DNA of 64,000 bases, from positions 10,823-74,822 of the forward strand of contig CAYPBP010000001.1 of the NCBI GenBank assembly GCA_964408995.1, in the 5' to 3' direction. Below are positions 2,233-63,407 of this stretch, in pieces; position 1 is the first letter of the stretch, and every line of letters begins with the position of its first letter. The notes under the pieces were generated by a model. It did not search any database. It was not told where the DNA came from and saw nothing but the letters and a program-made list of their open reading frames with translations. Source of the DNA: an uncultured Gammaproteobacteria bacterium. Its GTDB lineage: Bacteria; Patescibacteriota; Microgenomatia; UBA12405. The position numbers and the translations under genes are program-made.

Positions 2233-2235
2233 ATT

Positions 2236-10565: not shown

Positions 10566-11386
10566 AAAACAAAAAAAATACTATTTCAGTTGCTATCGCT
10601 ACATATAATGAAGAAGCTAATATTCAAAAGTGTTTGGAAGCCCTAGATTGGGTAAATGAAATTGTTATTGCTGACGGTGCTTCTCAAGATAAAACCATAG
10701 ACATAGCTTCTAAATTTAACAATGTAAAAATAATTAAAACTACCAATAAGCCAATGTTTCATATTAATAAAAACATTGCTATTGATGGCTGTACTGGTGA
10801 TTGGATACTTCAACTCGATGCTGACGAGATAGTCACTCCAGAACTTAAAGATGAAATAATTTCTTATCTTAAAAAGGATATTAATAAAGTAAAAGAAAAT
10901 GCTTTTTGGGTTCCTCGTCAAAACTATTTTTTGGGTTCTTTTTTAAAAAAAGGTGGTCAATATCCTGATCCAACCATTAGATTTTATAAAAATGGTAAAG
11001 CTAGACTTCCTTGTGTTGATGTCCATGAACAAGCCAAAGTAGAAGGGGAGATTGGTTGGTTAAAAAATGATCTTGAGCATTACGCCGACACTTCTTTTTC
11101 CAAATATCTTCTTCGTCACAATCGATATACCACTCTCTTGGCCCAAGAACTACAACAAAAAAACACAAAAATAAACTTTATAAATGCTATAAACTTTTAC
11201 TTTTTCAAACCAAATTGGTGGTTTTTCAAAACCTTTTTCCGACACCGTGGTTATGTTGATGGTTTTCCTGGTTTTGTCTTTTCTTTTTATTCTGCCCTAA
11301 GATTCCCAATTACTTATACTAAATTTTGGGAATTAACCAAAACCAATCGTAAAATTGATTTAAAAAATGATTGGGACAAAAAATAA
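10562..11386 (+). CDS. glycosyltransferase family 2
   Basis: VAIATYNEE...DGASQDKT...QLDADE motifs of GT-A/GT2; ATGA overlap with upstream gene. Confidence 0.65.
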   Translation: MKNKKNTISVAIATYNEEANIQKCLEALDWVNEIVIADGASQDKTIDIASKFNNVKIIKTTNKPMFHINKNIAIDGCTGDWILQLDADEIVTPELKDEIISYLKKDINKVKENAFWVPRQNYFLGSFLKKGGQYPDPTIRFYKNGKARLPCVDVHEQAKVEGEIGWLKNDLEHYADTSFSKYLLRHNRYTTLLAQELQQKNTKINFINAINFYFFKPNWWFFKTFFRHRGYVDGFPGFVFSFYSALRFPITYTKFWELTKTNRKIDLKNDWDKK

Positions 11387-12483
11387 TGTCTAAAAAAATA
11401 AAAATAGCTATTGATATTTCTCCAACTCTTGATGGCAATGCTCTTCGAGGGGTTGGTTATTACACTTCAAATTTAATCACTGCTCTTCAAAGCGAAGTTA
11501 AAAATAATCCTGATTATAAAGATTGGTCAATAAAATTAATCAAAGACTGGAAATTAGAAATTGGAAATTATAATTTAATCCACTATCCTTACTTTGATCC
11601 CTTCAAATTAACTCTACCCAAAAAAAGTAATCTTCCCACTATAATTACTGTTCATGATTTAATCCCTATCGAGTTTAAAAAACATTTTCCTGTTGGTATT
11701 AAAGGTTATTTAAAGTGGTTAATTCAAAAAAATAGATTATTAAAAGTTGACAAAATATTAACTGTTTCTAACTATTCAAAAAATATTATTAATCAAATCA
11801 CTAAATTTAAATTAAGTAATATTTTCGCTACTCATTTAGCTGCTGATTCAAGTTTTAAACCTTGCAATAATATAAATAAATTAAAAGAAATTAAAAAGAA
11901 ATATAAATTACCATCAAAATTTGTCCTCTTTGTTGGTGATATTAATTGGAACAAAAATATTCCAACTTTAGTAAAAGCTTGTTTAAAATTAAAATATCCA
12001 TTAGTTATAGTTGGGTCTTCTGCTACTAAAAAAGATGTCCCTAATCATCCTTGGACTCAAGATTTACTTTGGCTCCAATCTAAATCTAGAGAACCAGAGC
12101 TCCAGCGCACCAAGAAACTAATTCTTACTGGCTTTGTATCTGACGAAGAGTTACCTTTTATTTTTAATTTAGCAACTATTTATTGTCAACCATCATTTGC
12201 CGAAGGGTTTGGATTACCTCTTGTTCAAGCCATGCAATCTGGCATCCCAATCGTTTACAGCCAAGATTCTTGCCTTAATGAAATTATGGACTCTAATGGT
12301 CTAAAATTTAATCCATACTCTCAAAAAAGTTTAGAGAAAGCTTTAAATCAATTTTGGCAAAGTGGAACTCTTCGTCAAAAATATGCCCAACTTGGTTTAG
12401 TTCGCGCTAAAAATTTTAGCTGGAAAAAAACTGCTCTTCAAACACTTGCCCTTTATAACTTGACTCTTTTAAATGAAAAATAA
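11386..12483 (+). CDS. glycosyltransferase family 4 (GT-B)
   Basis: C-terminal EGFGLPLVQAMQSGIPIV motif; track start 11371 is TTG, first ATG at 11386 overlapping upstream TAA (TAATG). Confidence 0.6.
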   Translation: MSKKIKIAIDISPTLDGNALRGVGYYTSNLITALQSEVKNNPDYKDWSIKLIKDWKLEIGNYNLIHYPYFDPFKLTLPKKSNLPTIITVHDLIPIEFKKHFPVGIKGYLKWLIQKNRLLKVDKILTVSNYSKNIINQITKFKLSNIFATHLAADSSFKPCNNINKLKEIKKKYKLPSKFVLFVGDINWNKNIPTLVKACLKLKYPLVIVGSSATKKDVPNHPWTQDLLWLQSKSREPELQRTKKLILTGFVSDEELPFIFNLATIYCQPSFAEGFGLPLVQAMQSGIPIVYSQDSCLNEIMDSNGLKFNPYSQKSLEKALNQFWQSGTLRQKYAQLGLVRAKNFSWKKTALQTLALYNLTLLNEK

Positions 12484-24807: not shown

Positions 24808-25055
24808 GCACTTAGCTTAAGGGTCGTGTTCTCCCTGATGATTGTGTCAATTATACAATAATTATCCATATCATGTCAATCCCACCATAGTCCTCTAAAG
24901 CACCAGAGTACAGCAAGCACTAATGCATCAAAGTGCTAGTGTGTTAAATTAACCTCTTGACACAAAATATCGTGTCATAACCTGTAAGTGTAATATATTT
25001 ACATATAGGGGTCACATGAGCTTTATAAAAGATTTTATTAAATCAAAAAAAGTTT

Positions 25056-25826
25056 TTAAACAGTTTTTAAATTTTCTTTTATAAAATCCAAGATATAATC
25101 ATAAAATTCCAACAAACGATCTCTTTGATCAATAGGCACAAATGGTTTCAAGTCTAAGATAAACTTTTCCTTACTAAACTTATTTATCTTAGCAATTAAT
25201 TGGTCCGACATAAAAGTCTTTATATTGTAATATTTTAATTTTTCTTTCACTAATTTTTCATCTATAAAAATATTTTTACTCAATAAAAACCATAAATCAT
25301 AAATATCTCGTCCTTTATCTCGAGTTAATGTTGCTCTAATTTTTTCGGCCAATATTTCTTCAGCTGACAAATGATTCACATAAGCAGTAAATATAACTGG
25401 ATAATTTGTGTTTACAATTGATTGACTTGGATTTATCACTTTTTCCCTAAAAGAAAAATCAAGATTAATAAATATTTTATAATTAACTATATTCAAATCA
25501 GCCGTCAACAAATATTTATCTCCAGTAATAGTTTTTCTTTTCTTGAAATTAAAACCATATAATTTTTCTAGTTTCTTAAAAAATTTTATTATAAACACAT
25601 CAAATTCCTCTTTATCTCCCATAACGGTAAAATCTAAATCTTCTGAAAAACGTGTTCCTTTTAAAATTAATCTTATTGCTGTTCCTCCCTTAAAAAAAAT
25701 ATTTTGAGAATATTTTTCATCGTATAATTCCTTCAAAAATAGTGTTTGAATATACTCTCGAACCACTACACTTTCATTTATTTTTAACAGTCTTGAAAAT
25801 TCTTTTATTTGATTAGTAGTTAACAT
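25056..25826 (-). CDS. AbiEii/AbiGii-family nucleotidyltransferase toxin (type IV toxin-antitoxin/abortive infection)
   Basis: FFKGGTAIRLILKGTRFSEDLDFTV motif; 4-nt gap to upstream antitoxin gene. Confidence 0.6.
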   Translation of the reverse strand: MLTTNQIKEFSRLLKINESVVVREYIQTLFLKELYDEKYSQNIFFKGGTAIRLILKGTRFSEDLDFTVMGDKEEFDVFIIKFFKKLEKLYGFNFKKRKTITGDKYLLTADLNIVNYKIFINLDFSFREKVINPSQSIVNTNYPVIFTAYVNHLSAEEILAEKIRATLTRDKGRDIYDLWFLLSKNIFIDEKLVKEKLKYYNIKTFMSDQLIAKINKFSKEKFILDLKPFVPIDQRDRLLEFYDYILDFIKENLKTV

Positions 25827-25830
25827 ATTA

Positions 25831-26424
25831 TTATTTAATGATTTTTTTAACCAATTCCATAATATTCTTATCTGCTTTTAATTGACGACACATATCTAAA
25901 AATGTTTTTACATTAATGTTTCCCAGATCATATTCATCAAAATTAATTGATTTAAGACCTTTTGAAGCTAAATAAATTTGATCAAAAAGAGCTTTTTCTG
26001 GCAAAGCTATCAGCATATTATTTTTTTTAGTAAACATTCCAAAATATTTGGAATTTATATGACTGTAACTATATATTTTTTCATCAAATTTTTTAGTGAT
26101 ATTTTTCTTTGAAGTTACGTTAGTTATTTCAAAAGGAAATTGTGACAAAATACCCCAATAATTAAGAGCTGTTTCCAAAGAAATATAAGATGGTTGGTAC
26201 AAAAAATTAGCTATTTCAAAAGTATCTATATTTTTTCCAGTTACACAATACTTATTCTTTTCGATATTAATTAAAACTCCATTCTTTATAAAATCACTAA
26301 CAATTCGGTAATAAGTCCTTTCACTTTTTATACCCAAAATATCTTTTAATGTTTTTGAATTTATCAAAGTAAACCCAGACTCAAGTAATTTTTTTGTCAA
26401 TAAACTTAAACTATACGATTCCAT
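25831..26424 (-). CDS. AbiEi-family antitoxin / transcriptional regulator
   Basis: N-terminal winged-helix-like region, C-terminal AbiEi-like domain; directly upstream of AbiEii-like gene. Confidence 0.55.
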   Translation of the reverse strand: MESYSLSLLTKKLLESGFTLINSKTLKDILGIKSERTYYRIVSDFIKNGVLINIEKNKYCVTGKNIDTFEIANFLYQPSYISLETALNYWGILSQFPFEITNVTSKKNITKKFDEKIYSYSHINSKYFGMFTKKNNMLIALPEKALFDQIYLASKGLKSINFDEYDLGNINVKTFLDMCRQLKADKNIMELVKKIIK

Positions 26425-26462: not shown

Positions 26463-26539
26463 GTACTAATAAAAACAACCTCCTAGTAAATTGACCAGAC
26501 TACTAGCACACCAGAGCACTAACGTACTATAATGCATTA

Positions 26540-27340
26540 ATGCTTTCTCTTATCAAAGAAATAAAAGACATCTACAAATGGCGCGAACTATTATGGCAAA
26601 TGGTTGGCCGTGAAGTCAAAGCTCGCTACAAACAATCCATCCTCGGTTATTTCTGGGTTATCCTAAATCCACTAGCTCAAATGCTAGTCATGTCTTTTGC
26701 TTTCTCAATCATCATGCGAATTCCTACCAATTCAGCCAGCAATATTCCTTATTCTATTTTCCTTTTCGTTGCTCTTTTACCTTGGAACTTATTCACCGGT
26801 TCCCTTAGTTCAGCCGCTGGAGCCATAGTTGGAGCCGGTGGTTTAGTTACCAAAATTTATTTCCCTCGAACTATTTTAGTAATTGCCACTATCGTTGCTA
26901 AAATTATTGATTTTCTTTTTGCCAACATAGTCTTAGTTATTTATATGATTATTTACAACATACCAATCAATATAAATATTCTTTGGGTTATTCCAATCTT
27001 TTTTATTCAACAAATTTTCACTCTTGGTCTATCTCTTTTCTTTGCCGCCGCCAATCTTCTCTACCGAGACATTCAATACCTTTTATCAATGATTTTGCTT
27101 CTTTGGATGTATGTCACTCCAGTCATCTTCCCAGCCGATTTAGTCCCAGAAAGATACCGCTTTGTTTTCCAGATAAACCCTATGGCTGTCATTATTAATG
27201 CTTACAGGCAAGTAATTCTAGCTGGAGGTGTCCCTAAATACTCCAGTTTAGCCATCGCCATTGTCGTTTCTCTTATAACTCTTTTAATTGGCTTTAAATA
27301 TTTCAAATCTCGCGAAAAAATCTTCGCCGATAATATTTAG
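26540..27340 (+). CDS. ABC-2 type polysaccharide export permease (Wzm/TagG-like)
   Basis: WRELLWQMVGREVKARYKQSILGYFW signature; 6 TM helices. Confidence 0.7.
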   Translation: MLSLIKEIKDIYKWRELLWQMVGREVKARYKQSILGYFWVILNPLAQMLVMSFAFSIIMRIPTNSASNIPYSIFLFVALLPWNLFTGSLSSAAGAIVGAGGLVTKIYFPRTILVIATIVAKIIDFLFANIVLVIYMIIYNIPININILWVIPIFFIQQIFTLGLSLFFAAANLLYRDIQYLLSMILLLWMYVTPVIFPADLVPERYRFVFQINPMAVIINAYRQVILAGGVPKYSSLAIAIVVSLITLLIGFKYFKSREKIFADNI

Positions 27341-27341
27341 T

Positions 27342-27374
27342 CCTCTAGAACGCTGGTACTCTAGATCTCTAGAC
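27342..27374. repeat. degenerate period-8 array (ctctagNN)
   Basis: tcctctagaacgctggtactctagatctctagac; intergenic between the permease and the four-helix-bundle gene. Confidence 0.6.
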
Positions 27375-27409: not shown

Positions 27410-27775
27410 ATGAATTTTACTGATCTAAATATTTGGAAAGAAAGTAATAAATTAGCTATTACCATATATAAAATAACTAAAAATTTTCCAAAATCGGAAA
27501 TTTTTGGAATAACATCCCAACTACAAAGGGCTTCTACTTCTATTTCTGCTAATATTGCTGAAGGTTTCGGAAGGAAAGGCAATAAAGAATTTATCCAATT
27601 TTTATATCAAGCAAAAGGTTCTCTCTATGAAACTCAAAATTTTATACTTTTCAGCCGAGATATAGGTTATATTGAAAAATCAGAATCAGAAATTTTATTA
27701 AATCAATACGAATCATTAGCTAAAATGTTAAATTCCTTTATTACTAAGGTAAAATATAATAATGAAAACAAATAA
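27410..27775 (+). CDS. four-helix-bundle protein (PF05635-like, '23S rRNA intervening-sequence protein' family), copy 1
   Basis: 121 aa; LNIWKESNKLAITIYKIT...SQLQRASTSISANIAEGFGR motifs; sits between wzm- and wzt-like genes. Confidence 0.65.
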   Translation: MNFTDLNIWKESNKLAITIYKITKNFPKSEIFGITSQLQRASTSISANIAEGFGRKGNKEFIQFLYQAKGSLYETQNFILFSRDIGYIEKSESEILLNQYESLAKMLNSFITKVKYNNENK

Positions 27776-28553
27776 GGTGTCTAGCGAACCAGCGAACCAG
27801 CGAACCAGCGAACCAGACCAAATCGTTATACGATTTGGTCATGTTACCAAAGATTTTAGCAAACTCTCTCATAAAACCTTCAAAGAATTTCTTCCCGCTC
27901 TAATCAAAGGCGAAAAAACAGCTGAAAGTTTTACTGCTCTAAAAGACATTAGCTTTGAAATTAAAAAAGGGGAGACAGTTGGCATAATTGGTCCAAATGG
28001 CAGTGGCAAATCAACTATTCTAAAGCTCATTGCCGGCGTTATGTGGCCAACATCCGGAACAGTGCAAGTCAAAGGTAAAATCTCTCCTCTAATCGAGCTT
28101 GGTGCCGGCATGCATCCAGAATTAACTGGCAGTGAAAATATTTACTTAAACGGCGCCATTCTTGGTCTTTCTCAAAAAGAAATTGCGACCAATTACAAAT
28201 CTATTGTCGATTTTGCCGAAATTTGGGAATTTATCGATCAACCAATCAAACATTATTCTTCAGGTATGTATATGCGCCTTGCTTTTGCCATTGCCATTCA
28301 TGTCCACCCCGAAATTCTAATAGTCGACGAAATTCTATCTGTTGGTGATGCTGCTTTCCAAGACAAATGTTTCAAAAAGATGGAAGAATTTCAAAAATCA
28401 AAAGACATTACCATTATTTTTGTTACCCATGCTTTAGCTCAAGTCGAAAAATTCTGCACCCGCGCCATTTACATCAACAACCATCAAATCCAGTACGACG
28501 GCGATACTCAAAAAGCAACTAAAAAATATTTAGACGATCTAGAAAACAAATAA
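27762..28553 (+). CDS. ABC transporter ATP-binding protein (Wzt/TagH-like polysaccharide export ATPase)
   Basis: Walker A GPNGSGKST, signature YSSGM, Walker B ILIVDE; 5' end contains perfect octamer repeat. Confidence 0.75.
   Translation: MKTNKVSSEPANQRTSEPDQIVIRFGHVTKDFSKLSHKTFKEFLPALIKGEKTAESFTALKDISFEIKKGETVGIIGPNGSGKSTILKLIAGVMWPTSGTVQVKGKISPLIELGAGMHPELTGSENIYLNGAILGLSQKEIATNYKSIVDFAEIWEFIDQPIKHYSSGMYMRLAFAIAIHVHPEILIVDEILSVGDAAFQDKCFKKMEEFQKSKDITIIFVTHALAQVEKFCTRAIYINNHQIQYDGDTQKATKKYLDDLENK
27783..27819. repeat. perfect tandem octanucleotide repeat (agcgaacc) x4 plus partial copy, inside codons 8-19 of wzt-like gene
   Basis: ctagcgaaccagcgaaccagcgaaccagcgaaccagacc; translated SSEPANQRTSEPDQ. 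Confidence 0.9.
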
Positions 28554-28572: not shown

Positions 28573-29397
28573 TTATTTGAGCTTAATGGATTTTTTCTGA
28601 GATAAATAGTTTTTTTTAGAAACAATTGTTTTACCAAGTTCATTTTCCAGTTCTTTTCTGGCATTTCCAGCAATTTTACCACCTCTGTTCGCGTCACTTT
28701 TTAATTTGGGTACACCAATGGATTTTTCTTGGCGATGAATTTCAGTAGTAGACCTTTCTCCTAGCATAGTGAAGATCAATTCGAAATCATCCATATGATC
28801 TCTTAAATTTTCTCTTTTGATTCCTTTGAGTTTTTTATATTCAATTGGAGTTACTCCAAAAGTGGCTTTAGAAATTTCTGCAGTCAAAATTTCATAATCT
28901 TTTTGTTCTTTAGCACCTCGTTTTTGCCATTCGTCAGTTAATTCCTCGCGGATGGCAATACCACGCATTCTTTTTTCAATCCAACTTTCTGAATAACCTT
29001 TAGCTTGGTACAAGGCACGAGTTCGCTTGGTGGCTAATTCTGGATCTTCGATTTCTTGGACTCGTTCATAACCAACTTTTGCTAACCACATTTTAAATGG
29101 TTCAGCCTTAGGTGAGGGGATTGATTGAATAATTCTAAATATTCCTTCAGTATTAGCACAATCTGTAATATATTTTTTCCCATCTGATGATTCAAGTTTC
29201 AGTTGTCGACAAATTGTCGATAACTGAAATCCATCATCATTCTTAACTCTTATTTTCATTTTAAACCAATAATCGTTAGGATTGACACTATCAGTGAGTG
29301 ATTGAACTACATCCACAACTGAAAACCACCACTCATTTGAATAAATTGTTCTTCTAATTTTTTTACCTTTAAAAATTGCCAAATAATTGTTGTTCAT
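28573..29397 (-). CDS. Bro-N domain protein with DinD-like C-terminal region, copy 1
   Basis: Bro-N pattern (KKIRRTIYSNEWWFSVVDV...NTEGIFRIIQSIPSPKAEPFKMWLAKVG); near-identical paralogue at 52925..53746. Confidence 0.6.
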   Translation of the reverse strand: MNNNYLAIFKGKKIRRTIYSNEWWFSVVDVVQSLTDSVNPNDYWFKMKIRVKNDDGFQLSTICRQLKLESSDGKKYITDCANTEGIFRIIQSIPSPKAEPFKMWLAKVGYERVQEIEDPELATKRTRALYQAKGYSESWIEKRMRGIAIREELTDEWQKRGAKEQKDYEILTAEISKATFGVTPIEYKKLKGIKRENLRDHMDDFELIFTMLGERSTTEIHRQEKSIGVPKLKSDANRGGKIAGNARKELENELGKTIVSKKNYLSQKKSIKLK

Positions 29398-29403
29398 ACT
29401 AAA

Positions 29404-29431
29404 ATAATACTAGAGTAATTGGTCTTGTCAA
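29404..29431 (-). promoter_or_regulatory. sigma70-like promoter TTGACA-16-TATTAT, 6 nt upstream of Bro-N copy 1 start
   Basis: minus-strand ttcggttttagtcaTTGACAagaccaattactctagTATTATtttagtATG; about 60 nt conserved with 51841..51888. Confidence 0.45.
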
Positions 29432-29652
29432 TGACTAAAACCGAAGAAAACACGAATGTAAATAAATAATAAAATTTAAAAAAATACATTAGTACTATAT
29501 GTTAAACTCATTAATCATCTAACAAAAGCGATTCAATAATACTCATCTTATCCCCAAATTTCAACTCAAGCAATTGTGCAAGAAAATGTGTATAAATGCT
29601 TGAAACCAAGCAATTATTCAATTTTTGTGAAACTGTGTTAAAATTATAATTA

Positions 29653-50328: not shown

Positions 50329-50410
50329 CGTATTTTTAGGTCTAAATTTGAAATGTAATGCCAAATTTTGCCTAAAAATACAATCCCGCAACTGCGGGAT
50401 GATATCCTCT

Positions 50411-50440
50411 CTCTAAAGTTCTAACCATCTAAAGTTCTAT
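50411..50440. repeat. degenerate period-8 array (tctaaagt/tctaacca/tctaaagt/tctattat) immediately upstream of ugd
   Basis: ctctaaagttctaaccatctaaagttctat; GC hairpin cccgcaactgcggg just upstream at 50385..50398. Confidence 0.6.
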
Positions 50441-51755: not shown

Positions 51756-51854
51756 AAATAAAAACCTCTTTGTCTCACTTCATTCGACATCTCCCCTTAA
51801 AAAAGGGAGATAAAAAAATAATTTACAGATTTGGGTTTTATTCGGTTTTAGTCA

Positions 51855-51882
51855 TTGACAAGACTAACTAGTCGAGTATTAT
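51855..51882 (+). promoter_or_regulatory. sigma70-like promoter TTGACA-16-TATTAT, 6 nt upstream of RhuM-like gene start
   Basis: ttcggttttagtcaTTGACAagactaactagtcgagTATTATtttgatATG; conserved with the minus-strand copy at 29404..29448. Confidence 0.45.
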
Positions 51883-51888
51883 TTTGAT

Positions 51889-52932
51889 ATGAACAATAAA
51901 AAATTAATCATTCCGGAAAATTCTTTTACAGAATTTCTCTTATATACCACTCCAAATGAAAAAGTAAAAGTTGAAATCTTTTTACATAATGAAAATATCT
52001 GGCTTACTCAAGAAAAAATTGCTGGACTTTTTGATATAGAAAGAAGTGTTGTTACTAAACATCTACAAAATATTTATAAAGATAATGAACTTGATAAAAA
52101 ATCAACATGTGCAAAAATTGCACAAGTTCAAGTTGAAGGACAAAGAAAAGTTACTAGAAATATTGAATTTTATAATCTAGATGCAATTATTTCTGTTGGA
52201 TATAGAGTAAATAGTAAAAAAGCCACACTTTTTCGTATTTGGGCAACAGAAAGACTTAAAGAATATATTATTAAAGGTTTCACCATGGATGATGAAAGAC
52301 TAAAAAATCCTAATAATTTTTTTGGGCAAGATTACTTTGAAGAACAACTCGCCAGAATTAGAAATATTAGATCCAGTGAAAGACGTATGTATTTAAAAAT
52401 CACTGATATTTATGCTCAATGTAGTGCTGATTATTCACCAGAGAGTGAAATTACTAAACAATTTTTTGCAACCGTTCAAAACAAACTACATTTTGCTATT
52501 ACTGGAAAAACAGCAGCTGAGATTATTTCCCAAAGGGCAAATAATAAAAAAGTAAACATGGGTTTAACTGTTTGGAAAAATTCACCAAAAGGTATTATAC
52601 GTGAATCTGATGTTGTTGTTGCTAAAAATTATTTAAACGAAAAAGAACTTGACCAACTCAACCGCATTGTGACAATGTATCTTGATTATGCTGAAATGCA
52701 AGCCCAAAAAGGAATCATTATGTATATGAAAGATTGGATATCAAAGCTTAATGCTTTTCTAAAATTTAATGAACAAGAAATATTAAAAAACACTGGCAAT
52801 ATAAGTCATGAGGTTGCCCAAGCGTTAGCTTTAAAAGAGTATGAAAAATATAGAATACAACAAGATAAAAACTATATCTCTGATTTTGAAATTGCAGTAA
52901 AAAAACTTTTAGAAAAAAACAAAAATGAATAA
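51889..52932 (+). CDS. RhuM-family protein (PF13310-like)
   Basis: EIFLHNENIWLTQEKIAGLFD...YNLDAIISVGYRVNSKKATLFRIWATERLKEYIIKGF signature. Confidence 0.6.
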   Translation: MNNKKLIIPENSFTEFLLYTTPNEKVKVEIFLHNENIWLTQEKIAGLFDIERSVVTKHLQNIYKDNELDKKSTCAKIAQVQVEGQRKVTRNIEFYNLDAIISVGYRVNSKKATLFRIWATERLKEYIIKGFTMDDERLKNPNNFFGQDYFEEQLARIRNIRSSERRMYLKITDIYAQCSADYSPESEITKQFFATVQNKLHFAITGKTAAEIISQRANNKKVNMGLTVWKNSPKGIIRESDVVVAKNYLNEKELDQLNRIVTMYLDYAEMQAQKGIIMYMKDWISKLNAFLKFNEQEILKNTGNISHEVAQALALKEYEKYRIQQDKNYISDFEIAVKKLLEKNKNE

Positions 52933-54998: not shown

Positions 54999-55966
54999 TT
55001 TTTAAATTGTTTATGCCAATTCCAAGCACTGCTGACAATGATTTCCAAATCAAAATACTTTGGCTCCCATTTTAAAACATTTTTAGCTTTGCTTGCGTCA
55101 GCAATTAATTCTGGTGGATCACCAGCCCTGCGATCTTTGGGAGTTACTTTAAAATCAATTTGAGTAACTTTTTTGGCCATATCAATTACTTCTTTGACAG
55201 AAAAGCCTTTACCGTTGCCCAAATTAAAACAATCACTTTGACCCCCGTCCATCAAATATTTCAAAGCCAACACATGAGCATCGGCCAAATCAGTCACATG
55301 GATATAATCACGAATACAAGTTCCATCTGGGGTTGGATAATCAGTTCCAAAAACTCCAATTTCTTCCCTGGCCCCAATAGCCGCATCTAGCACCAATGGA
55401 ATCAAATTTGAACTGCTTCCTTGCCATTCACCAGTTTCACCATCTAAATCAGCTCCACAAGCGTTGAAATATCTCAATGACACATACTTAAAACCATAAG
55501 CTGAAGAATAATCACGCATTATATGTTCTGTTATTAATTTAGTTTCGCCATATGGATTGATAGGGGATTGTGGGTGTTTTTCATCAAGAGGCATATATTG
55601 TGGTTCTCCATAAACTGCCGCTGATGAAGAAAAGATAAATTTATCCACCTTATTTTCCATCATCACCTTAAATAAATTCAAAGCGTTAGATACATTATTA
55701 ATATAATATTTTTGAGGATCAACTACCGATTCACCAACTGCTTTAAAAGCAGCAAAATGAAATACTGCTTCAATCGGATATTTTTTAAAAACTTCTCTAA
55801 TATTTTCAATATTTCCCAAATCACCTTCGAAAAATTCTCCCCATTTAACCAAATCTTTTTTACCCGAAGACAAGTTATCAAAAACAACTGTTTTGTAACC
55901 TTGTTTAGTCAGTTCTTTGTTAATATGAGAACCAATATATCCAGCTCCCCCTACAATTAAAATCAT
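54995..55966 (-). CDS. galE: UDP-glucose 4-epimerase
   Basis: MILIVGGAGYIGSH; YGETK catalytic motif; 323 aa. Confidence 0.8.
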   Translation of the reverse strand: MILIVGGAGYIGSHINKELTKQGYKTVVFDNLSSGKKDLVKWGEFFEGDLGNIENIREVFKKYPIEAVFHFAAFKAVGESVVDPQKYYINNVSNALNLFKVMMENKVDKFIFSSSAAVYGEPQYMPLDEKHPQSPINPYGETKLITEHIMRDYSSAYGFKYVSLRYFNACGADLDGETGEWQGSSSNLIPLVLDAAIGAREEIGVFGTDYPTPDGTCIRDYIHVTDLADAHVLALKYLMDGGQSDCFNLGNGKGFSVKEVIDMAKKVTQIDFKVTPKDRRAGDPPELIADASKAKNVLKWEPKYFDLEIIVSSAWNWHKQFKK

Positions 55967-56008
55967 ATTTAGTTTAATAGATAAATAGATAAATAGTTTA
56001 ATAGATAA

Positions 56009-56374
56009 TCAATAACTACAACTTTTTACCTTTGTTAATAATGAGTTTAACATTTTTGCTACTTCTATTGATAAATTAACAAGTCTTTCAAATTCATCAT
56101 TATTAATATATTCCAAATCTCTCGATAATTCTAAAAAATACTGTGTTTCAGACAAAGAACCTCTAGCCTGAACTAAAAACTGAGCAAATTCTTTGCTTGA
56201 TCTTCTGGCATTACCTTCTACAATATTTGCTGGAACAGAGCTAGAAGCTCTTCTTAATTGAGAAATAATTCCAAACAATTCATCTTTTGGATATGTTTTA
56301 GTAATTTTATACACCTCTAAAGTATACTCGTGGGCTTTTTTCCAAACTAATATATTATGGTACAACACAAACAA
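56009..56374 (-). CDS. four-helix-bundle protein (PF05635-like), copy 2; non-ATG (TTG/GTG) start
   Basis: ILVWKKAHEYTLEVYKIT...SQLRRASSSVPANIVEGNAR; no in-frame ATG near the N-terminus. Confidence 0.55.
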   Translation of the reverse strand: MFVLYHNILVWKKAHEYTLEVYKITKTYPKDELFGIISQLRRASSSVPANIVEGNARRSSKEFAQFLVQARGSLSETQYFLELSRDLEYINNDEFERLVNLSIEVAKMLNSLLTKVKSCSY

Positions 56375-56407
56375 TTCTACTACTCAACTACTTATCTAAT
56401 CAACTAC

Positions 56408-57511
56408 TTATCTAATCTCTTCCCATGGATACTCTTCATACCCAAAATGCCCATATTTAGCTGTGTTTTTATAGATTGGTCTTTTTAAATCAAATTTATC
56501 AATAATTCCTTTAACTGATAAATCCATTAAATTCCAAGCAAAATCATTAATTTCTGACAAATCTTTTTTGGATGTTCCAAAAGTTTCAATTGATTTACAA
56601 ATAAGATCCCGAAGACCAATTACATAGGCCAATTGCACTTCACATCTATCGGCCAACCCTGCTGCTACAATATTTTTAGCAATATATCTGGCTGCATAGG
56701 CTGCACTACGATCAACTTTTGTTGGATCTTTTCCCGAAAAACAACCACCACCAATTCTGCCCATGCCACCATAAGTATCCACCACAATTTTTCTACCAGT
56801 CACTCCCGTATCTGATGCTGGACCACCAATTTCCCAAGCCCCAGTTCCATTAAAAATAATTTCTTCTTCTGTTAACTTGTTTAGATTATATTTTTGCAAA
56901 ACTGGTAAAACAGCCAAATTATATAAATCAGATTTAACTTTTTCTTTATCAACTTGAGGATCAAATGGTTTGGCTAAAACTATTTTTTCAATTTTAGAAA
57001 CTTTACCATTTTCGTAACTAACACTTACTTCTGCTTTTCCATCCGGTCTTAAATAATTTAATTCACCAAATTGAAGTTCATCCATTTTTTTACAAAGTTC
57101 ATGAGACAAAACAATTGGCAAAGGCATTAGTTGTGGCGTTTCATTACAAGCATAACCAAACATCATTCCCTGATCTCCAGCTCCATCATTATCTGCACCA
57201 ATAGCAATATCTTTTGATTGCTGATGAACTAAAACCTCAATATCTGCACTTTCATCAAAATTTAAAATTGGATCTGTGTAACCAATTTCTTTAATTACTT
57301 TTTTAGCAATTTCAATATAATCCAAACTTTGACTACAAGTAACTTCACCTGCCATCACTATTTTATTAGTTGTTACTAAAGTTTCCAAAGCTACTCTAGC
57401 ATTTTTATCAACTATTAAAGCTGCATCTAGAACAGCATCTGAAATTTGATCCGAAACCTTATCTGGATGACCACAACACACTGACTCTGACGTAAATAGG
57501 AGATAATTCAT
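56408..57511 (-). CDS. metK: S-adenosylmethionine synthetase
   Basis: FTSESVCCGHPDKVSDQISDAVLDA, GDQGMMFGYA, GGGCFSGKDPTKVDRSAAYAARY motifs. Confidence 0.85.
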   Translation of the reverse strand: MNYLLFTSESVCCGHPDKVSDQISDAVLDAALIVDKNARVALETLVTTNKIVMAGEVTCSQSLDYIEIAKKVIKEIGYTDPILNFDESADIEVLVHQQSKDIAIGADNDGAGDQGMMFGYACNETPQLMPLPIVLSHELCKKMDELQFGELNYLRPDGKAEVSVSYENGKVSKIEKIVLAKPFDPQVDKEKVKSDLYNLAVLPVLQKYNLNKLTEEEIIFNGTGAWEIGGPASDTGVTGRKIVVDTYGGMGRIGGGCFSGKDPTKVDRSAAYAARYIAKNIVAAGLADRCEVQLAYVIGLRDLICKSIETFGTSKKDLSEINDFAWNLMDLSVKGIIDKFDLKRPIYKNTAKYGHFGYEEYPWEEIR

Positions 57512-57714: not shown

Positions 57715-58938
57715 ATGAAAATCTTATTATTAAGCCACATTTTTCCACCTGCAATTGATGGTGGTTCAAAAGTAATTTATAAACTTGGTCAATATTTTGA
57801 ATCTCAAGACCATCAAACCCTTTATCTTTCTTCCAATTGCACCAGCACCGACGATTTTGTTAAAGCAAAAAATTATCGACAATCTAACAGCAACGATCCA
57901 ACCTCTCTTTTAAAACTTCCTGTCTATCACCATCTTCGTCGTCCACTAAAATTTTTAAACTTATTTTTAAAAAAAGATCTATTAAAAGTTTTTCAAAAAG
58001 GCCCCATTTTTAAATTTATTCCATTTATAAAAGCCACTTATCAAGTAATAAAATTCAAACCCGATTTAATTGTTGCCGGACCACTTCCCACCACCATAGT
58101 CCTCTACGCCAGATTTTTCAAATTTATTTCTAAAGCTCTAACACTCAAAAGTTCTAAAGTTCTAATCAATTCTTCTTTCCATCAAACTGATCAAGACTTT
58201 CAACAAAAATCCTTAATCAAATCTCTTCAAAATGCTGATTATCTTTGGACCTTAACTCAATTTGAAACTGATTACTTTATTAAAAATTTTAAAATTAACC
58301 CTCAAAAAATAATCCTCGCCGGCAATGGCATAGATAATAACTTCTTAGTAAGGTGCCCTGTCAAGGGAAAGGTGGTACGAAGTACCAAAGGGTTTAATAT
58401 CTTGTTTATAGGAAGCCTTGCTGCCCATAAACGCGTAGATCTTCTTATCAAATCTTTTTCTAAAGTTCTAAAGCTCTACAGCTCTAACCCTCTAACTTTA
58501 ACCATCGCTGGTCAAAAAACCCTCTTTTATCCCCAAATACAAAAAACCATAAAGTCTCTTCCCAAAAATATTCAAAAACAAATAAAATTTATTTTTAATT
58601 TTAAAGAATCAGATTTAGCCAAATTAATCGATAATTGCGATATATTAGTTTTACCTTCAGTCCAAGAAAGTTTTGGTTTAGTTCTCGTCGAAGCCTGGGC
58701 CAGACAAAAACCAGTTATTACTAGTGACATTCCATCATTGAAAGAATTAGTTTCTAAGACTAAAGGGGGATTAACTTTTAAAACTGATAACCAAAAAGAT
58801 CTTAGTCAAACAATTATTAAACTAATTAACAACCAGAAACTTTGCCACCAATTGGGCCAAAATGCTTTTGAATATGTTAAAACTAATTATACTTGGAAAA
58901 AAGTAGGAGAAAAAATATGTCAAAAAATATTATCTTAA
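57715..58938 (+). CDS. glycosyltransferase family 4 (GT-B) carrying the 47-nt element and two period-8 arrays in-frame
   Basis: NGIDNNF ... FNILFIGSLAAHKRVDLL ... SVQESFGLVLVEAWARQKPVITSD motifs; 15 inserted residues VRCPVKGKVVRSTKG encoded by the element. Confidence 0.6.
   Translation: MKILLLSHIFPPAIDGGSKVIYKLGQYFESQDHQTLYLSSNCTSTDDFVKAKNYRQSNSNDPTSLLKLPVYHHLRRPLKFLNLFLKKDLLKVFQKGPIFKFIPFIKATYQVIKFKPDLIVAGPLPTTIVLYARFFKFISKALTLKSSKVLINSSFHQTDQDFQQKSLIKSLQNADYLWTLTQFETDYFIKNFKINPQKIILAGNGIDNNFLVRCPVKGKVVRSTKGFNILFIGSLAAHKRVDLLIKSFSKVLKLYSSNPLTLTIAGQKTLFYPQIQKTIKSLPKNIQKQIKFIFNFKESDLAKLIDNCDILVLPSVQESFGLVLVEAWARQKPVITSDIPSLKELVSKTKGGLTFKTDNQKDLSQTIIKLINNQKLCHQLGQNAFEYVKTNYTWKKVGEKICQKILS
58129..58168. 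repeat. degenerate period-8 array (tctaaagc/tctaacac/tcaaaagt/tctaaagt/tctaatca) inside GT4 coding sequence
   Basis: translated FISKALTLKSSKVLINSS. Confidence 0.65.
58350..58396. repeat. 47-nt GC-rich hairpin element, copy 2 (identical to 5648..5694), translated in a different frame
   Basis: aaggtgccctgtcaagggaaaggtggtacgaagtaccaaagggttta. Confidence 0.85.
58459..58498. repeat. degenerate period-8 array (tctaaagt/tctaaagc/tctacagc/tctaaccc/tctaactt) inside GT4 coding sequence
   Basis: translated SKVLKLYSSNPLTL; the 'tctaa' unit is read in all three frames. Confidence 0.65.
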
Positions 58939-59372
58939 TTATTACCCCATTATTAATAATCGCCACTATTTTAATTTGGCGTTTATTTTTTTATATGCCA
59001 TCAGCAGAATTTATTAATCTGAATATTAAAGATCAAAAATATAAAATCGAATTAGCCAAAACTTCTGCTCAAAAAATCAAAGGTTTATCAAAAAGAGAAA
59101 AACTTTGTAAAAATTGTGGCATGCTTTTTATTTTTGCTTTTGAAACCGAACTTCCTTTTTGGATGAAAGACACTCTGATTCCTCTTGACATTATTTGGCT
59201 TAATAAAGATGGTAAAGTAGTTGATATTCAAACAGCCACCACTACCAGCTCTCAAAAAATTTATAAAAATAAATCAAAAGCTCAATATGTTTTAGAACTA
59301 AATGCCACTGATTCTCAAAAATTGAATTTAAATATCGACGATATTATTCAATTACCCAATTTCAATGACTAA
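58917..59372 (+). CDS. DUF192-family protein
   Basis: CGMLFIFAFETELPFWMKDTLIPLDIIWLNKDGKVVDI signature; RBS aggaga before ATG 58917 (track start 58893 is TTG). Confidence 0.55.
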   Translation: MSKNIILIITPLLIIATILIWRLFFYMPSAEFINLNIKDQKYKIELAKTSAQKIKGLSKREKLCKNCGMLFIFAFETELPFWMKDTLIPLDIIWLNKDGKVVDIQTATTTSSQKIYKNKSKAQYVLELNATDSQKLNLNIDDIIQLPNFND

Positions 59373-60384
59373 AAAATCCAGAGCACCAGAGCACCAGAGC
59401 ACCAGAGCACCAAATTTCTCCATAATCATTCCCAACTACAACGGTGCTCAATTTATAGCTGATTGTTTGAACTCACTTTATCAATCAATTCAAAATTGTC
59501 CCAATTCAGAATTTGAAATAATTCTTGTCGACAATGGATCTAAAGATAATAGTATTGAAATTTTTCAAAAAATAATTCCCAAAAATATTCACTATAAAAT
59601 TTTATTGAATTCTCAAAATAAAGGTTTTGCCCCAGCTGTTAATCAAGGCATAAATAAAGCCAAATATGAATATGTTGTCTTACTAAATAATGACTTAACT
59701 ATGGAACCTGATTGGTTTCAATTAATTTCTAATCAAATAAAAATTAATAAAGATCCAAAAATCACTACTTTCTTTGGCACAGTTTTGACTAAAGATGGCT
59801 CTAAATTTGAATCCCAAGGTTTAGAGTTTTTCTATTCTGGCAAAGCTCAAAATATCTCCAATGGCAAAGATTTTACCCCATCTACGACCTACGACCTACA
59901 ATCTACTAAACTAGTTTGGGGTGCTTCCGCCGCTCTAGTTGTTTACAAAAAAGAAACTCTAGAAAAAATTGGCCTCTTTGATGAAGATTTTTTTGCCTAT
60001 GAAGAAGATGTTGATTTGGCCCTGCGACTCCACAATTTAAACTATAAAACTCTTTATATCCCCGCTGCCATTTCCTATCATATAGGAGGCGGAACCAGCA
60101 ACAAAATGGGGATTTTTAGATACAAAATGGATGCTAAAAATTGGATTTACATTATAATCAAAAACTTTTCCAAAAAAGAAATAATAACTAATTTACCCAA
60201 AATTATAGAAGAACGATTAAGAAACTTATCTGGTTTAAGTAAGCAAACTATTCGTATTTATAAACTGAAATCAATTTTCTATTTACCATACATATTATTT
60301 TCTACTTACGGTGAAGTTTTAGTTAAACTACCAAAAATGTTTAACAAACGTAAATCTATCAAAAAACTTGATAGACTATGCTAA
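59365..60384 (+). CDS. glycosyltransferase family 2 with octamer repeat in its 5' end
   Basis: FSIIIPNYNGAQF...VDNGSKDNS...VLLNNDL motifs; N-terminal SRAPEHQSTRAP encoded by repeat. Confidence 0.65.
   Translation: MTKKSRAPEHQSTRAPNFSIIIPNYNGAQFIADCLNSLYQSIQNCPNSEFEIILVDNGSKDNSIEIFQKIIPKNIHYKILLNSQNKGFAPAVNQGINKAKYEYVVLLNNDLTMEPDWFQLISNQIKINKDPKITTFFGTVLTKDGSKFESQGLEFFYSGKAQNISNGKDFTPSTTYDLQSTKLVWGASAALVVYKKETLEKIGLFDEDFFAYEEDVDLALRLHNLNYKTLYIPAAISYHIGGGTSNKMGIFRYKMDAKNWIYIIIKNFSKKEIITNLPKIIEERLRNLSGLSKQTIRIYKLKSIFYLPYILFSTYGEVLVKLPKMFNKRKSIKKLDRLC
59378..59411. repeat. perfect tandem octanucleotide repeat (ccagagca) x4, codons 5-16 of GT2 gene
   Basis: ccagagcaccagagcaccagagcaccagagcacc. 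Confidence 0.9.
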
Positions 60385-60405
60385 TTAAAATTTAAAAACT
60401 AAAAT

Positions 60406-60436
60406 TCTAGTGCTCTAAAGCTCTAAAACTCTAAAA
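60406..60436. repeat. degenerate period-8 array (gtgctcta/aagctcta/aaactcta) immediately upstream of GT4 start
   Basis: tctagtgctctaaagctctaaaactctaaaatATG. Confidence 0.6.
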
Positions 60437-61580: not shown

Positions 61581-62244
61581 CTATTACCAAAATAATTCAA
61601 ACAAATTTGGATGGGGGACTGATAATAAAATTTCTGATTACAAAATAAAAGAAATAATTCCTCATATTTCTGGTAAAAAAGTTCTTGATATAGGTTGTGG
61701 CCCAGGTCATTTGGTTGATATTTTGTCTAAAAAAGGTTTTGATTCTTTTGGTATCGATTCAACCCCTAGTTTTATTAACTATGCCAAAAAAAATAAAAAA
61801 GGTACTTTTAAAATTGGTAACGCCAATAAAACTCAATTTAAATCAAAAGAATTTGATACTGTAATTTTAAAAAGTGTTTTAGAACATTTAAAAGACGACA
61901 AAATAGCCCTAAAAGAAGCTCTAAGAATAGGTAAAAAAATAATCATAATTGTCCCTCAAAAAACTAGTTTTAAATTAAAAAAAAGAGGTTTAATTTACTC
62001 TCATTATCAAGACAAAAGTCATCTTAGAAACTACACCAAAAAATCATTAACCAAATTGATTAACTCTTGTAACGCTAAAATAATTAAATTAATCCCAATT
62101 GAACCCTTACCAATCAAATCCATCTTTTTTGAATTATTTATAGCTCCTAAATTACTAAAAAGAATAATCACAAAAATTTTCTTTTTAATTTTTAAACAAG
62201 AAAAATATTATTTAGAACTTTTAGTTATAATTAAAGCATGTTAA
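61555..62244 (+). CDS. class I SAM-dependent methyltransferase
   Basis: VLDIGCGPGHLVDIL motif I; about 100 aa later VLEHL. Confidence 0.6.
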   Translation: MSMSKPLTDYYQNNSNKFGWGTDNKISDYKIKEIIPHISGKKVLDIGCGPGHLVDILSKKGFDSFGIDSTPSFINYAKKNKKGTFKIGNANKTQFKSKEFDTVILKSVLEHLKDDKIALKEALRIGKKIIIIVPQKTSFKLKKRGLIYSHYQDKSHLRNYTKKSLTKLINSCNAKIIKLIPIEPLPIKSIFFELFIAPKLLKRIITKIFFLIFKQEKYYLELLVIIKAC

Positions 62245-63368
62245 TTGGTATTGATGGTAACGAAGCTAATATTAAAAACCGAGTTGGTGTTGGTCAATAT
62301 GCTTTTAATTTATTATTAAACATTTATTCCCTGGACAAAAAAAATAAATATATTATTTATTTAAAAGAAGAAGCCCAAGATGATCTGCCAAAAGCTAATC
62401 CTAACTGGCAATACAAAGTTTTTGGACCGAAAAAACTTTGGACTAAAATAGCCCTACCAATTAAATTGTTTACCCAATCAGATAAATTAGATTTATTCTA
62501 TTCACCTAGCCATTATTCACCATCTCTTTGCCCTTGTCCCACTGTTCCTACTATTCACGATTTAGGTTATCTTCAATCTCAAGATCAATTCACTAAAAAA
62601 GATTTATATCAATTAATCAATTGGACCGAAAAATCTCTCAAAAAATCCAGTCATATTATTACTGTTTCTAATTTTTCCAAAAACGAAATTGAAAAAATCT
62701 ACAAAATAAATCCTAAAAAAATTACTATTGCCTATAACGGAGTTAGTTCGCCACCAAAGATTGATACAAAAGATCAACAAAAAATCCTTTCTCTATACAA
62801 TCTTCAATCTAAAAACTATTATCTCTACTTAGGTACTCTTAAACCCAACAAAAACCTCCCATTTTTAATCAAATCTTTTTCTGAATTTATAAAAAAATCT
62901 AAAGCTCTAAAGATCCAAAGTTCTAACGTTCTAGTTATTGCTGGTAAAAAAGGCTGGCTCTTTGATGAAATTTTTAGTTGTGTCAAACAAGAAGGAATCG
63001 AAAACAATATTGTTTTCACTGACTTTATTGATGAATCTCAAAAGTGGACTTTGTATCAAAATGCTAAAGCTTTGATTATGCCAAGTCTTTATGAAGGTTT
63101 TGGTATTCCTGTTATTGAAGCCATGAAAGTAAACACTCCAGTAATTTCAAGTAATATTATCCCTTTAAAAGAAGTCCTTCAAAACAATGCTTTCTATTTC
63201 AACCCAACTAAAGAAAAAGAACTGATCGATCAATTAATCAAGTTTGAAAAACTTAATTCTTTAGGCATCAAAAAAATAACTGATAAAGCCAAGCTTAGGG
63301 CTGATTTTTTTAGCTGGCAAAACACTGCCAAATCAGTCATTTCTGTTTTTGAAAAATTTAAAAATTAA
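62238..63368 (+). CDS. glycosyltransferase family 4 (GT-B)
   Basis: MLIGIDGNEAN...; SLYEGFGIPVIEAMKVNTPVISSN. Confidence 0.6.
   Translation: MLIGIDGNEANIKNRVGVGQYAFNLLLNIYSLDKKNKYIIYLKEEAQDDLPKANPNWQYKVFGPKKLWTKIALPIKLFTQSDKLDLFYSPSHYSPSLCPCPTVPTIHDLGYLQSQDQFTKKDLYQLINWTEKSLKKSSHIITVSNFSKNEIEKIYKINPKKITIAYNGVSSPPKIDTKDQQKILSLYNLQSKNYYLYLGTLKPNKNLPFLIKSFSEFIKKSKALKIQSSNVLVIAGKKGWLFDEIFSCVKQEGIENNIVFTDFIDESQKWTLYQNAKALIMPSLYEGFGIPVIEAMKVNTPVISSNIIPLKEVLQNNAFYFNPTKEKELIDQLIKFEKLNSLGIKKITDKAKLRADFFSWQNTAKSVISVFEKFKN
62898..62935. repeat. degenerate period-8 array (tctaaagc/tctaaaga/tccaaagt/tctaacgt/tctag) inside GT4 coding sequence
   Basis: translated SKALKIQSSNVLV; same position in the GT4 fold as the array at 58459. 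Confidence 0.65.
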
Positions 63369-63377
63369 AATATAACT

Positions 63378-63407
63378 TTCTAATGCTCTAACCTTCTAAT
63401 GCTCTAT
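63378..63407. repeat. degenerate period-8 array (tctaatgc/tctaacct/tctaatgc/tctattta), intergenic
   Basis: ttctaatgctctaaccttctaatgctctattta upstream of acetyltransferase gene. Confidence 0.6.

Follow-up and report, generated by a model that had tools for sequence, protein, structure and literature searches.

A perfect octanucleotide tract at the start of a Shapirobacteria glycosyltransferase gene: a candidate frameshift switch from a dispersed repeat family

Can a short DNA repeat at the start of a glycosyltransferase gene turn that gene on and off in a bacterium of the Candidate Phyla Radiation (CPR)? The question is raised by a perfect octamer tract in the 5' coding end of a gene of glycosyltransferase family 2 (GT2), located in a stretch of 64,000 nucleotides (nt) of contig CAYPBP010000001.1 that was analysed as a whole (the window). 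The original prediction, made from the bare sequence, paired this tract with a similar one in the wzt gene and took the two as pointers to stochastic on/off control of surface glycan in a CPR-like organism. The reading that we favour, and to which we give an even chance, is that the GT2 tract is a recently amplified, stop-free member of an octamer family and forms a frameshift-prone switch at the start of GT2. Homologues bear the name Candidatus Shapirobacteria, a CPR lineage in the Microgenomates, in agreement with the proposed kind of organism.

Anatomy of the tract and reading frame of GT2

At the tract, Tandem Repeats Finder detects a period of 8 with 4.4 copies, 100% matches and the consensus CCAGAGCA. 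According to an exact scan of the window for perfect tandem repeats (unit 5-12 nt, at least 3 copies), only one other repeat of this kind is present, i.e. AGCGAACC with 4.25 copies at 27783..27816 in wzt. A perfect 8-mer in three copies occurs in none of 200 first-order Markov, composition-preserving shuffles of the window; chance or low complexity as the origin of the tract is ruled out by these shuffles. The GC content of both perfect units is 62%, that of the window 27.7%.

The predicted position of the tract in codons 5-16, just before the FSIIIPNYNG motif, is borne out by the open reading frame (ORF): the tract encodes the peptide SRAPEHQSTRAP, which is followed by NFSIIIPNYNG. The gene product is a member of the GT2 family by its match to the Pfam profile of the GT-A N-terminal domain (PF00535, Glycos_transf_2; E=1.1e-27; 97.5 bits vs a cut-off of 23.3; residues 19-127), and D56, D110 and D215/D217 are invariant in the GT2 alignment (32 orthologues). 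Its ATG overlaps the stop codon of the upstream DUF192 gene (ATGACTAA). The leader is absent in most orthologues (MINFSIIIP...), and others fill it with up to about 30 residues; hence, inserts are tolerated in this part of the protein. The tract is a solo array inside a pre-existing MNKK(I/S)NFS leader.

In silico, full-length GT2 is obtained with 1, 4 or 7 units, and all other numbers lead to a stop after 14-37 residues. The same unit numbers keep wzt in frame; with the other numbers, translation of the two genes taken together stops after 14-57 residues. No rescue start codon is present in GT2 before the first beta-strand. The tract resembles a contingency locus in that it is perfect, has a unit that is not a multiple of 3, lies in coding sequence, and switches the frame in silico when its unit number changes. 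At least three octanucleotide units have been used as a criterion for candidate phase-variable genes (PMC7383803), and the 4.4 units of the tract exceed this number.

According to the model that we favour, a stop-free octamer of the Shapirobacteria family would have been inserted in frame into the dispensable GT2 leader, in a 24-nt step onto a seed of 1.5 units, and recently homogenised. Slipped-strand mispairing at replication would then add or remove whole units, which is to be expected because the tract is perfect, 35 nt long, and built from a unit whose length is not divisible by 3. Cells with 1, 4 or 7 units would make the enzyme; in all others, a frameshift before the catalytic domain would leave a peptide of 14-37 residues. 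The outcome would be cells with GT2 either ON or OFF, in a heritable and reversible manner, and with wzt ON or OFF independently of it, so that the surface glycan would vary across the population. We infer a useful switching rate of the GT2 tract as well as selection for switching; the control of the surface glycan may then be both stochastic and adaptive.

The octamer family, its stop-codon rule and its turnover

The original prediction regarded the two tracts, together with two related fragments, as a sequence family. Both fragments are real, one as an array of 3.5 units upstream of wzm and the other as an intergenic two-unit fragment, and so is the family, but it comprises more than two repeats plus fragments: after merging, at least 11 period-8 arrays are present in the window (rows marked array in Table 1). 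A period scan found 7 such arrays vs 0.35 in shuffles, with no enrichment for periods 7 and 9-14, and a search of the window with 3 mismatches revealed further period-8 runs. The pattern CYAR-N4-CYAR-N4-CYAR has 23 matches in the window vs 0.26 expected, 20 of them on the plus strand. Once placed in one register, all window arrays have C-Y-A-R as their first four unit positions, and pooling of the units gives the consensus C-T-A-A-[A/C]-G-[C/T]-T, with G at position 6 in 98 of 119 units.

Relatives were gathered one by one, and the terms nearest, closest and only apply in the following among the matches listed. The gene cluster GT4a-DUF192-GT2-GT4b-(methyltransferase)-GT4c is syntenic across relatives. 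Arrays of the same type recur in a number of them (L002 with 7, L003 with 8, L009 with 4, L014 with 2 and L015 with 3 arrays, furthermore L084 and L086), and in each case they occupy the sense strand at a syntenic position; unrelated control loci of about 1.1 Mb yielded 5 single CYAR-array matches. The unit CCAGAGCA is also found in a GT4a loop of L002 and L003, and in L162. The wzt leader of L162 contains one array that runs CCAGAGCA ... CCAGAGAA ... CCAGCGAA ... CTAGCGAA, which means that both unit types of the window are joined in a single array. Based on the shared consensus, we assign the GT2 and wzt tracts to a lineage-specific family of sense-strand octamer arrays (CTAAMGYT), which occupies promoters, 5' leaders and surface loops of glycan genes in a subclade of Shapirobacteria.

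Among 39 arrays from 24 loci, 6 lie in 5' coding ends, 21 at internal coding positions and 12 in non-coding DNA. The GT2 and wzt tracts are consequently not independent inventions at 5' ends, but the most homogeneous members of a dispersed family. Their association with glycan genes, which the original prediction had taken as a pointer, says little, since nearly the whole window is a glycan island with more than 15 glycosyltransferases, wzx, wzm/wzt and sugar-nucleotide enzymes, interspersed with toxin-antitoxin, Bro-N and RhuM genes. Many glycosyltransferase genes of the window are also free of arrays, and the window is not informative as to a specificity of the arrays for glycan genes.

The arrays in GT4a occupy four variable loops, where array-free orthologues (L081, L006, L011) are gapped, and those in GT2 and wzt occupy an N-terminal leader that is missing from most orthologues (wzt: MSNETVIKF...). 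In several further cases, an array stops 1-17 nt short of a start codon. In other genomes, octamer-array sites are used by a second GC-rich insert type, which is unrelated (peptides e.g. SPALSREGLREGF, GLSGKGF, PVKGRGREGF). It was observed in L005 (~9950-10010), in the GT4a loops of L005, L084 and L015, and in the GT2 leaders of P0006, P0020, P0048, P0063, P0077 and P0276.

The unit length imposes a rule on translated arrays. Since 8 and 3 have no common factor, all three phases are used in reading an array of at least three units, and units with CTAA or CTAG give an in-frame stop every third unit. In non-coding arrays, 41 of 47 units begin with CT. Of the units in coding arrays, those in the critical phase begin with CC without exception (22/22), and those in the other phases with CT (34) or CC (16). 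A homogeneous coding array therefore needs a stop-free unit, and the occurrence of the GC-rich units CCAGAGCA and CCAGCGAA in a genome of 28% GC is explained by the fact that only stop-free units allow a perfect coding tract. Homogeneous CC units stand in all three codon phases, which points to amplification of a single unit and not to separate selection on each unit. The modal length of coding arrays is 36 nt, i.e. 4.5 units, and equals a native seed of 1.5 units plus one in-frame step of 24 nt.

The turnover of the arrays is fast. In the nearest relative, L161 (87% identity in protein), the sequence ...AAAAAAT CAAGCGAA GCAAAT... holds 1.5 units, exactly 24 nt less than in the window, so that the step just described separates the two. 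Within clusters of 90% identity, the GT2 leader is present in P0033 and missing in P0274, and in P0276, as opposed to P0055, an unrelated GC-rich insert stands in its place. For wzt, array-free, short-array and 9-unit alleles occur within one 90%-identity cluster and a 48-nt in-frame duplication in another, and an array is lacking in the closest orthologue (92% identical). Among the coding arrays, perfect runs are longest in GT2 (35 nt) and wzt (34 nt), followed by one of 23 nt; the longest non-coding run has 29 nt and most arrays reach 12-19 nt. Hence, the GT2 and wzt tracts are probably the youngest or the most actively homogenised members, with recent amplification of their units. Exchange between alleles is also indicated. 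A patch of 62 nt around a GT4a array (58437..58498) differs from the corresponding region of the conspecific contig L186 (70-137) at 24 positions, and L186 has 6 extra nucleotides there; its version is in frame, with synonymously recoded flanking codons and a different octamer unit type, between flanks nearly identical to the window. The pattern indicates short-patch recombination.

Slippage in natural populations and the competing explanations

Slippage was observed in a comparable tract of an orthologous gene. An internal loop of the window GT2 contains a heptamer tract (CTACGAC x2.6), which is homologous to a perfect (CCATCTA)x4 in the GT2 orthologue of a sister species. This species is represented by ten loci from different samples that are 98.9-100% identical over 3.2 kb (L176-L185). 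In L177, which is 99% identical to its reference, the tract is reduced to (CCATCTA)x3 by an exact loss of 7 nt, and the resulting frameshift leads to a stop after residue 175 of GT2. It follows from this loss of one unit that perfect four-unit tracts of 7-8 nt slip in natural Shapirobacteria and that OFF alleles of GT2 exist. In total, a cluster gene is disrupted in four of the ten contigs, the other cases being a 1-nt deletion in L176, a 2-nt deletion in GT4b in L182, and a 79-nt deletion in DUF192 in L184.

For the GT2 tract itself, the evidence comes from L186 (Logan run SRR8925793), the only conspecific contig, which was retrieved via its identical DUF192 protein. Outside the GT4a patch, it has 2 mismatches to the window in about 980 nt, and its end lies inside the tract, at exactly 30 nt. 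In Logan assemblies, which are built as graphs with k=31, no 31-mer occurs twice (PMC12424806). A de Bruijn simulation with k=31 showed that alleles of 3 or 4 units assemble through and that a mixture of 4 and 3 units breaks at 27 nt; a break at exactly 30 nt is obtained only with an allele of at least 5 units, alone or mixed. This is indirect evidence, precise to a single base, for a longer tract (at least 5 units) in the L186 sample.

The predicted on/off control gains from the switch anatomy, the unit loss in L177 and the break in L186, but a number of findings weigh against it. At the 5' site of GT2, no out-of-frame allele was found in about 20 loci, and the family consists for the most part of imperfect arrays that keep the frame and are stable. 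Among the imperfect arrays, a 9-unit wzt allele (P0241) is identical on 16 contigs from at least 6 samples. The slippage example concerns a heptamer at another site in another species. The break in L186 could also stem from another CCAGAGCA tract of at least 31 nt elsewhere in the sample, and, since this contig ends inside the tract, the window provides the single full-length conspecific allele. Four units are few compared with proven contingency tracts of octamers or tetramers and with the octanucleotide GCATCATC of Haemophilus influenzae biogroup aegyptius, which is present in 12-15 copies upstream of hmw1A/hmw2A (PMC3309571). None of 5.8 billion proteins contains a long perfect CCAGAGCA tract, and a search for long expansions of the unit elsewhere with the peptide (PEHQSTRA)x5 gave four weak matches, in small ORFs only. 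Finally, arrays occur in mid-gene loops and promoters as well, as expected of mutation filtered by tolerance.

The latter idea leads to the main rival explanation, which we consider tenable though not probable: the tract could be a tolerated by-product, i.e. the newest insertion or expansion of an octamer minisatellite, selfish or neutral, that slippage and short-patch recombination spread among glycan genes and that persists only where a stop-free insert in frame does no harm; rare frameshifts would then be deleterious mutations, with no regulated switch. The location of arrays in variable loops, leaders and intergenic DNA, with gaps in array-free orthologues, fits this explanation, as do the presence of an unrelated insert type at the same sites and the recombined patch through which near-identical strains come to have different GT4a arrays. 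The coding arrays observed all keep the frame, their stop avoidance is what purifying selection would give, and their modal length corresponds to the seed plus one in-frame step. What a mere by-product leaves unexplained is the position of both long perfect tracts at 5' coding ends. Nor would it account easily for one unit family at more than 10 sites, about 10-fold concentrated in one conserved cluster, or for a non-coding member that is about 93% conserved next to a protein of 82% identity. Moreover, four identical units within a gene that arise by single-unit slippage pass through OFF states, so that the OFF state must be tolerated.

We regard it as improbable that the arrays are cis-regulatory, i.e. 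DNA or mRNA sites for a lineage-specific factor (e.g. an Avd-like protein) or promoter elements; the GT2 tract would then act on the operon at the level of transcription, processing or translation initiation and not as a frameshift switch. Such a function would agree with the bias to the sense strand, which is complete in relatives, with the conserved unit positions 1, 3 and 6, and with the arrays that closely precede start codons in a genome nearly without Shine-Dalgarno sequences. Furthermore, the array upstream of wzm is conserved and adjoins a TATAAT box, and two genes for 23S rRNA intervening-sequence proteins (IVP; see below) lie between inverted arrays that can pair as RNA. The GT2 tract, however, has neither an inverted partner nor an IVP gene nearby; units of the CC type lose the consensus TA, and close relatives such as L081 and L161 keep the gene cluster without arrays. 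We know of no binding protein for the octamer family. No Rfam match at gathering thresholds was obtained in the whole window, which also rules out a known RNA family for the tract, and sigma-70 promoters were rejected as the identity of the arrays after a consensus scan that found fewer sites than in shuffles. A clear TATAAT box adjoins only the array upstream of wzm. A palindromic operator like the MetJ metbox was discarded because palindromy is not a consistent trait of the units and the arrays favour one strand. A mode of five CYAR motifs had been considered as a sign of binding by a pentameric Avd-like protein; this idea was dropped, as the peak is confined to coding arrays and fits the 1.5-unit seed plus the 24-nt in-frame step. 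An origin from phages or mobile elements was likewise rejected, as neither CCAGAGCA x3 nor CTAACGYT x3 was found in IMG/VR.

An assembly or sequencing artefact, suggested by the fact that the contig is metagenome-assembled, is scarcely credible. The tract of 35 nt is far shorter than a read, L186 as an independent assembly from another run has the same flank and at least 3.75 identical units, and a related array with the CCAGAGCA unit is identical in six independent assemblies.

Intervening-sequence cassettes, known systems and neighbourhood

The claimed likeness of the GT2 and wzt tracts holds for their four perfect units and their frame logic, but the wzt tract is in addition the arm of a cassette. 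An IVP gene (PF05635), whose product is Avd-like (PMC10053308), lies between wzm and wzt, with an antisense array on its left and the sense array of the wzt tract on its right; the same arrangement is found in L162-L167 (L162 2560-3100). With an adjacent PF05635 gene and an inverted partner, the wzt tract is built like the arm of a cassette of the intervening-sequence (IVS) type. For the GT2 tract, neither a reverse-strand copy nor a nearby IVP gene was found; the absence of both and its insertion within the MNKK(I/S)NFS leader rule out a cassette remnant. The cassette is present or absent among close relatives and brings a new start codon for wzt. At the empty site of L168 (880-910), the sequence reads wzm-stop aatt ATG T CTAACGAA CCAGTCAT, and hence the last array unit corresponds to native wzt codons 2-4. 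In the window as in L003 (2369-2858), metK and an epimerase gene flank a second IVP paralogue (53% identical); its inverted arms of 23-27 nt show 87-89% complementarity and have a unit different from that of cassette 1. For both cassettes, the arms are predicted to pair as RNA (about -26 kcal/mol, z = -4). Altogether, the IVP units look like IVS-type cassettes in protein-coding operons. The single distant homologue examined outside Shapirobacteria, L064, has only a weak GTCTG-type repeat downstream of its IVP gene.

In L173 (200-260), homology to L171 starts inside the array, a critical-phase unit CTAACGTT gives an in-frame TAA, and wzt lacks a canonical start. L173 may represent an OFF allele or pseudogene of wzt, or a chimeric contig, as it is a single contig of low coverage with a breakpoint within the repeat. 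The array upstream of wzm is about 93% conserved in L164 and L168, though the Wzm proteins are 82% identical, and its TATAAT box lies 6-7 nt before the ATG; these features suggest that at least some non-coding arrays are constrained elements of promoter regions. Just upstream of this array, a (CTACTTT)n heptamer has 2 vs at least 3 units between close relatives (L164 1690-1720, L168 1-35). A more far-reaching scenario, which we regard as doubtful, is that solo arrays were seeded, through insertion or short-patch recombination, from IVS-like Avd-gene cassettes with inverted octamer arms into promoters, leaders and surface loops of glycan genes, and that stop-free variants were homogenised into slip-prone tracts. 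If true, this would be a previously undescribed system, in which a dedicated repeat family makes and renews contingency loci and loop diversity in the surface-glycan genes of a reduced-genome episymbiont.

Contingency loci made of simple sequence repeats are known from glycosyltransferase genes of host-adapted pathogens, e.g. the tetranucleotides of Haemophilus influenzae lic2A and lgtC, and the poly-G tracts of Neisseria lgt and of Campylobacter cgtA and wlaN. The tracts described here share with them the perfect repeat with a unit not divisible by 3, the position near the 5' end of the coding part of a surface-glycan gene, the frameshifting, and the presence in several glycan genes per genome. 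They differ in the 8-nt unit with 4 copies, the uncultivated CPR organism and the membership in a shared dispersed family, and their switching is predicted from the sequence. The hmwA repeat mentioned above is also an octamer at a surface-structure gene, but it is located in the promoter and not in the coding region, has many more copies, and is unrelated in sequence.

Heterocystous cyanobacteria possess short tandemly repeated repetitive (STRR) heptamers. Like these, the octamer arrays are lineage-specific tandem arrays of 7-8 nt units that share one consensus and are dispersed over many loci; unlike the mainly intergenic STRR sequences, they are in 27 of 39 cases inside coding sequences, with many arrays translated in frame under the stop-avoidance phase rule and concentrated in glycan genes. 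Rickettsia palindromic elements, palindromic units of 100-150 bp inserted in frame in protein-coding genes, are comparable as repeats that are tolerated as in-frame inserts in surface loops or termini of conserved proteins; they differ in having no tandem octamers and in not being slip-prone. With the 23S rRNA intervening sequences that carry an IVP/S23p ORF, the wzt tract and the arrays of cassette 2 share the layout of inverted arms around an IVP gene. In contrast to these, the cassettes lie between protein-coding genes and have arms of tandem octamers, and the GT2 tract has neither IVP gene nor partner arm.

Members of the CPR, or Patescibacteria, have tiny genomes and a lifestyle of attachment to host cells, with exposure to phages. 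To our knowledge, the ways in which they vary their surfaces are almost unexplored, and full-text literature searches found no paper that links phase variation with CPR or Patescibacteria. What appears to be new, as judged from the sequences, is the occurrence of candidate contingency loci of the simple-sequence-repeat type in glycan genes of a CPR bacterium, drawn from a shared repeat family. If the tracts switch, Shapirobacteria would share the bet-hedging logic of the glycan genes of Haemophilus, Neisseria and Campylobacter, with the difference that the loci stem from a shared octamer family shaped by an arithmetic rule (8 and 3 coprime; every third unit stop-free). They would also open a way to study strain-level surface heterogeneity in metagenomes, as well as the uncharacterised cassettes with Avd-like genes.

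Table 1. Positions of arrays, genes and cassettes in the window.
Feature	Class	Position	Strand	Description
GT2 tract	array	59378..59412	+	perfect (CCAGAGCA)x4.4
GT2 gene	gene	59365..60384	+	339 residues; from ORF and Pfam
GT2 N-terminal peptide	peptide			MTKKSRAPEHQSTRAPNFS
DUF192 gene	gene	58917..59372	+	directly 5' of GT2; longest ORF from TTG 58893, orthologues begin at ATG 58917
Heptamer tract in GT2 loop	heptamer	59882..59909	+	CTACGAC CTACGAC CTACAAT CTACTAA
wzt tract	array	27781..27816	+	CTAGCGAA (CCAGCGAA)x3 CCAG; codons 7-18 of wzt; right arm of cassette 1
wzt gene	gene	27762..28553	+	wzt-like ABC transporter ATPase
IVP gene	gene	27410..27775	+	PF05635, cassette 1
Left arm of cassette 1	array	27337..27372	-	CTAGAGAT CTAGAGTA CCAGCGTT CTAGAGGA CTAA; sole antisense array
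IVP cassette 2	cassette	55965..56415	-	IVP paralogue 56009..56374 between inverted arrays TAGATAAG / TTATCTAT
Array upstream of wzm	array	26495..26522	+	CCAGACTA CTAGCACA CCAGAGCA CTAA
Two-unit fragment	fragment	24895..24910	+	CTAAAGCA CCAGAGTA
Array in GT4 gene 11371..12483	array	12086..12121	+	degenerate; interdomain loop
Array at UDP-glucose dehydrogenase gene	array	50413..50432	+	9 nt before ATG
First GT4a array	array	58128..58165	+	degenerate; loop of GT4a (57715..58938)
Second GT4a array	array	58455..58497	+	degenerate; second loop; other unit type in L186
Array before GT4b	array	60399..60434	+	all units CTAA/CTAG; ends 3 nt before ATG
GT4c array	array	62899..62934	+	degenerate; interdomain loop of GT4c (62238..63368)
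Array at hexapeptide acyltransferase gene	array	63380..63399	+	about 30 nt before ATG (63428)

Some further observations concern the surroundings of the arrays. The intergenic region 24890-24945 resembles the region of the wzm promoter array (26495-26540), and the two copies are separated by a pair of genes like AbiEii/AbiEi (25056..26424, minus strand) that gives the impression of an insertion. A GC-rich hairpin (CCCGCAACTGCGGG) at 50385-50398 directly precedes the array before the UDP-glucose dehydrogenase gene; similar hairpins are found upstream of the rearranged wzt in L173 (60-140). According to the upstream regions of 55 window ORFs, Shine-Dalgarno sequences are nearly absent, with a clear GGAGG only at metK. 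At several genes, a TATAAT-like box stands 6-8 nt ahead of the ATG, which suggests leaderless mRNAs or mRNAs with a very short leader.

Near-identical promoter-like modules (attgacaag...tattatttt..tATG) precede the Bro-N gene 28573..29397 (29398-29435, minus strand) and the RhuM gene 51889..52932 (51851-51888, plus strand); their sequences suggest that the glycan island may have received two mobile or defence modules that are related to each other. Positions 544-10565 are taken up by six paralogous ORFs in tandem, each of about 540-573 residues, the first without a Pfam match. At 14183-17113 lies a gene for a radical-SAM protein of 976 residues, which includes an intein with a LAGLIDADG endonuclease domain.

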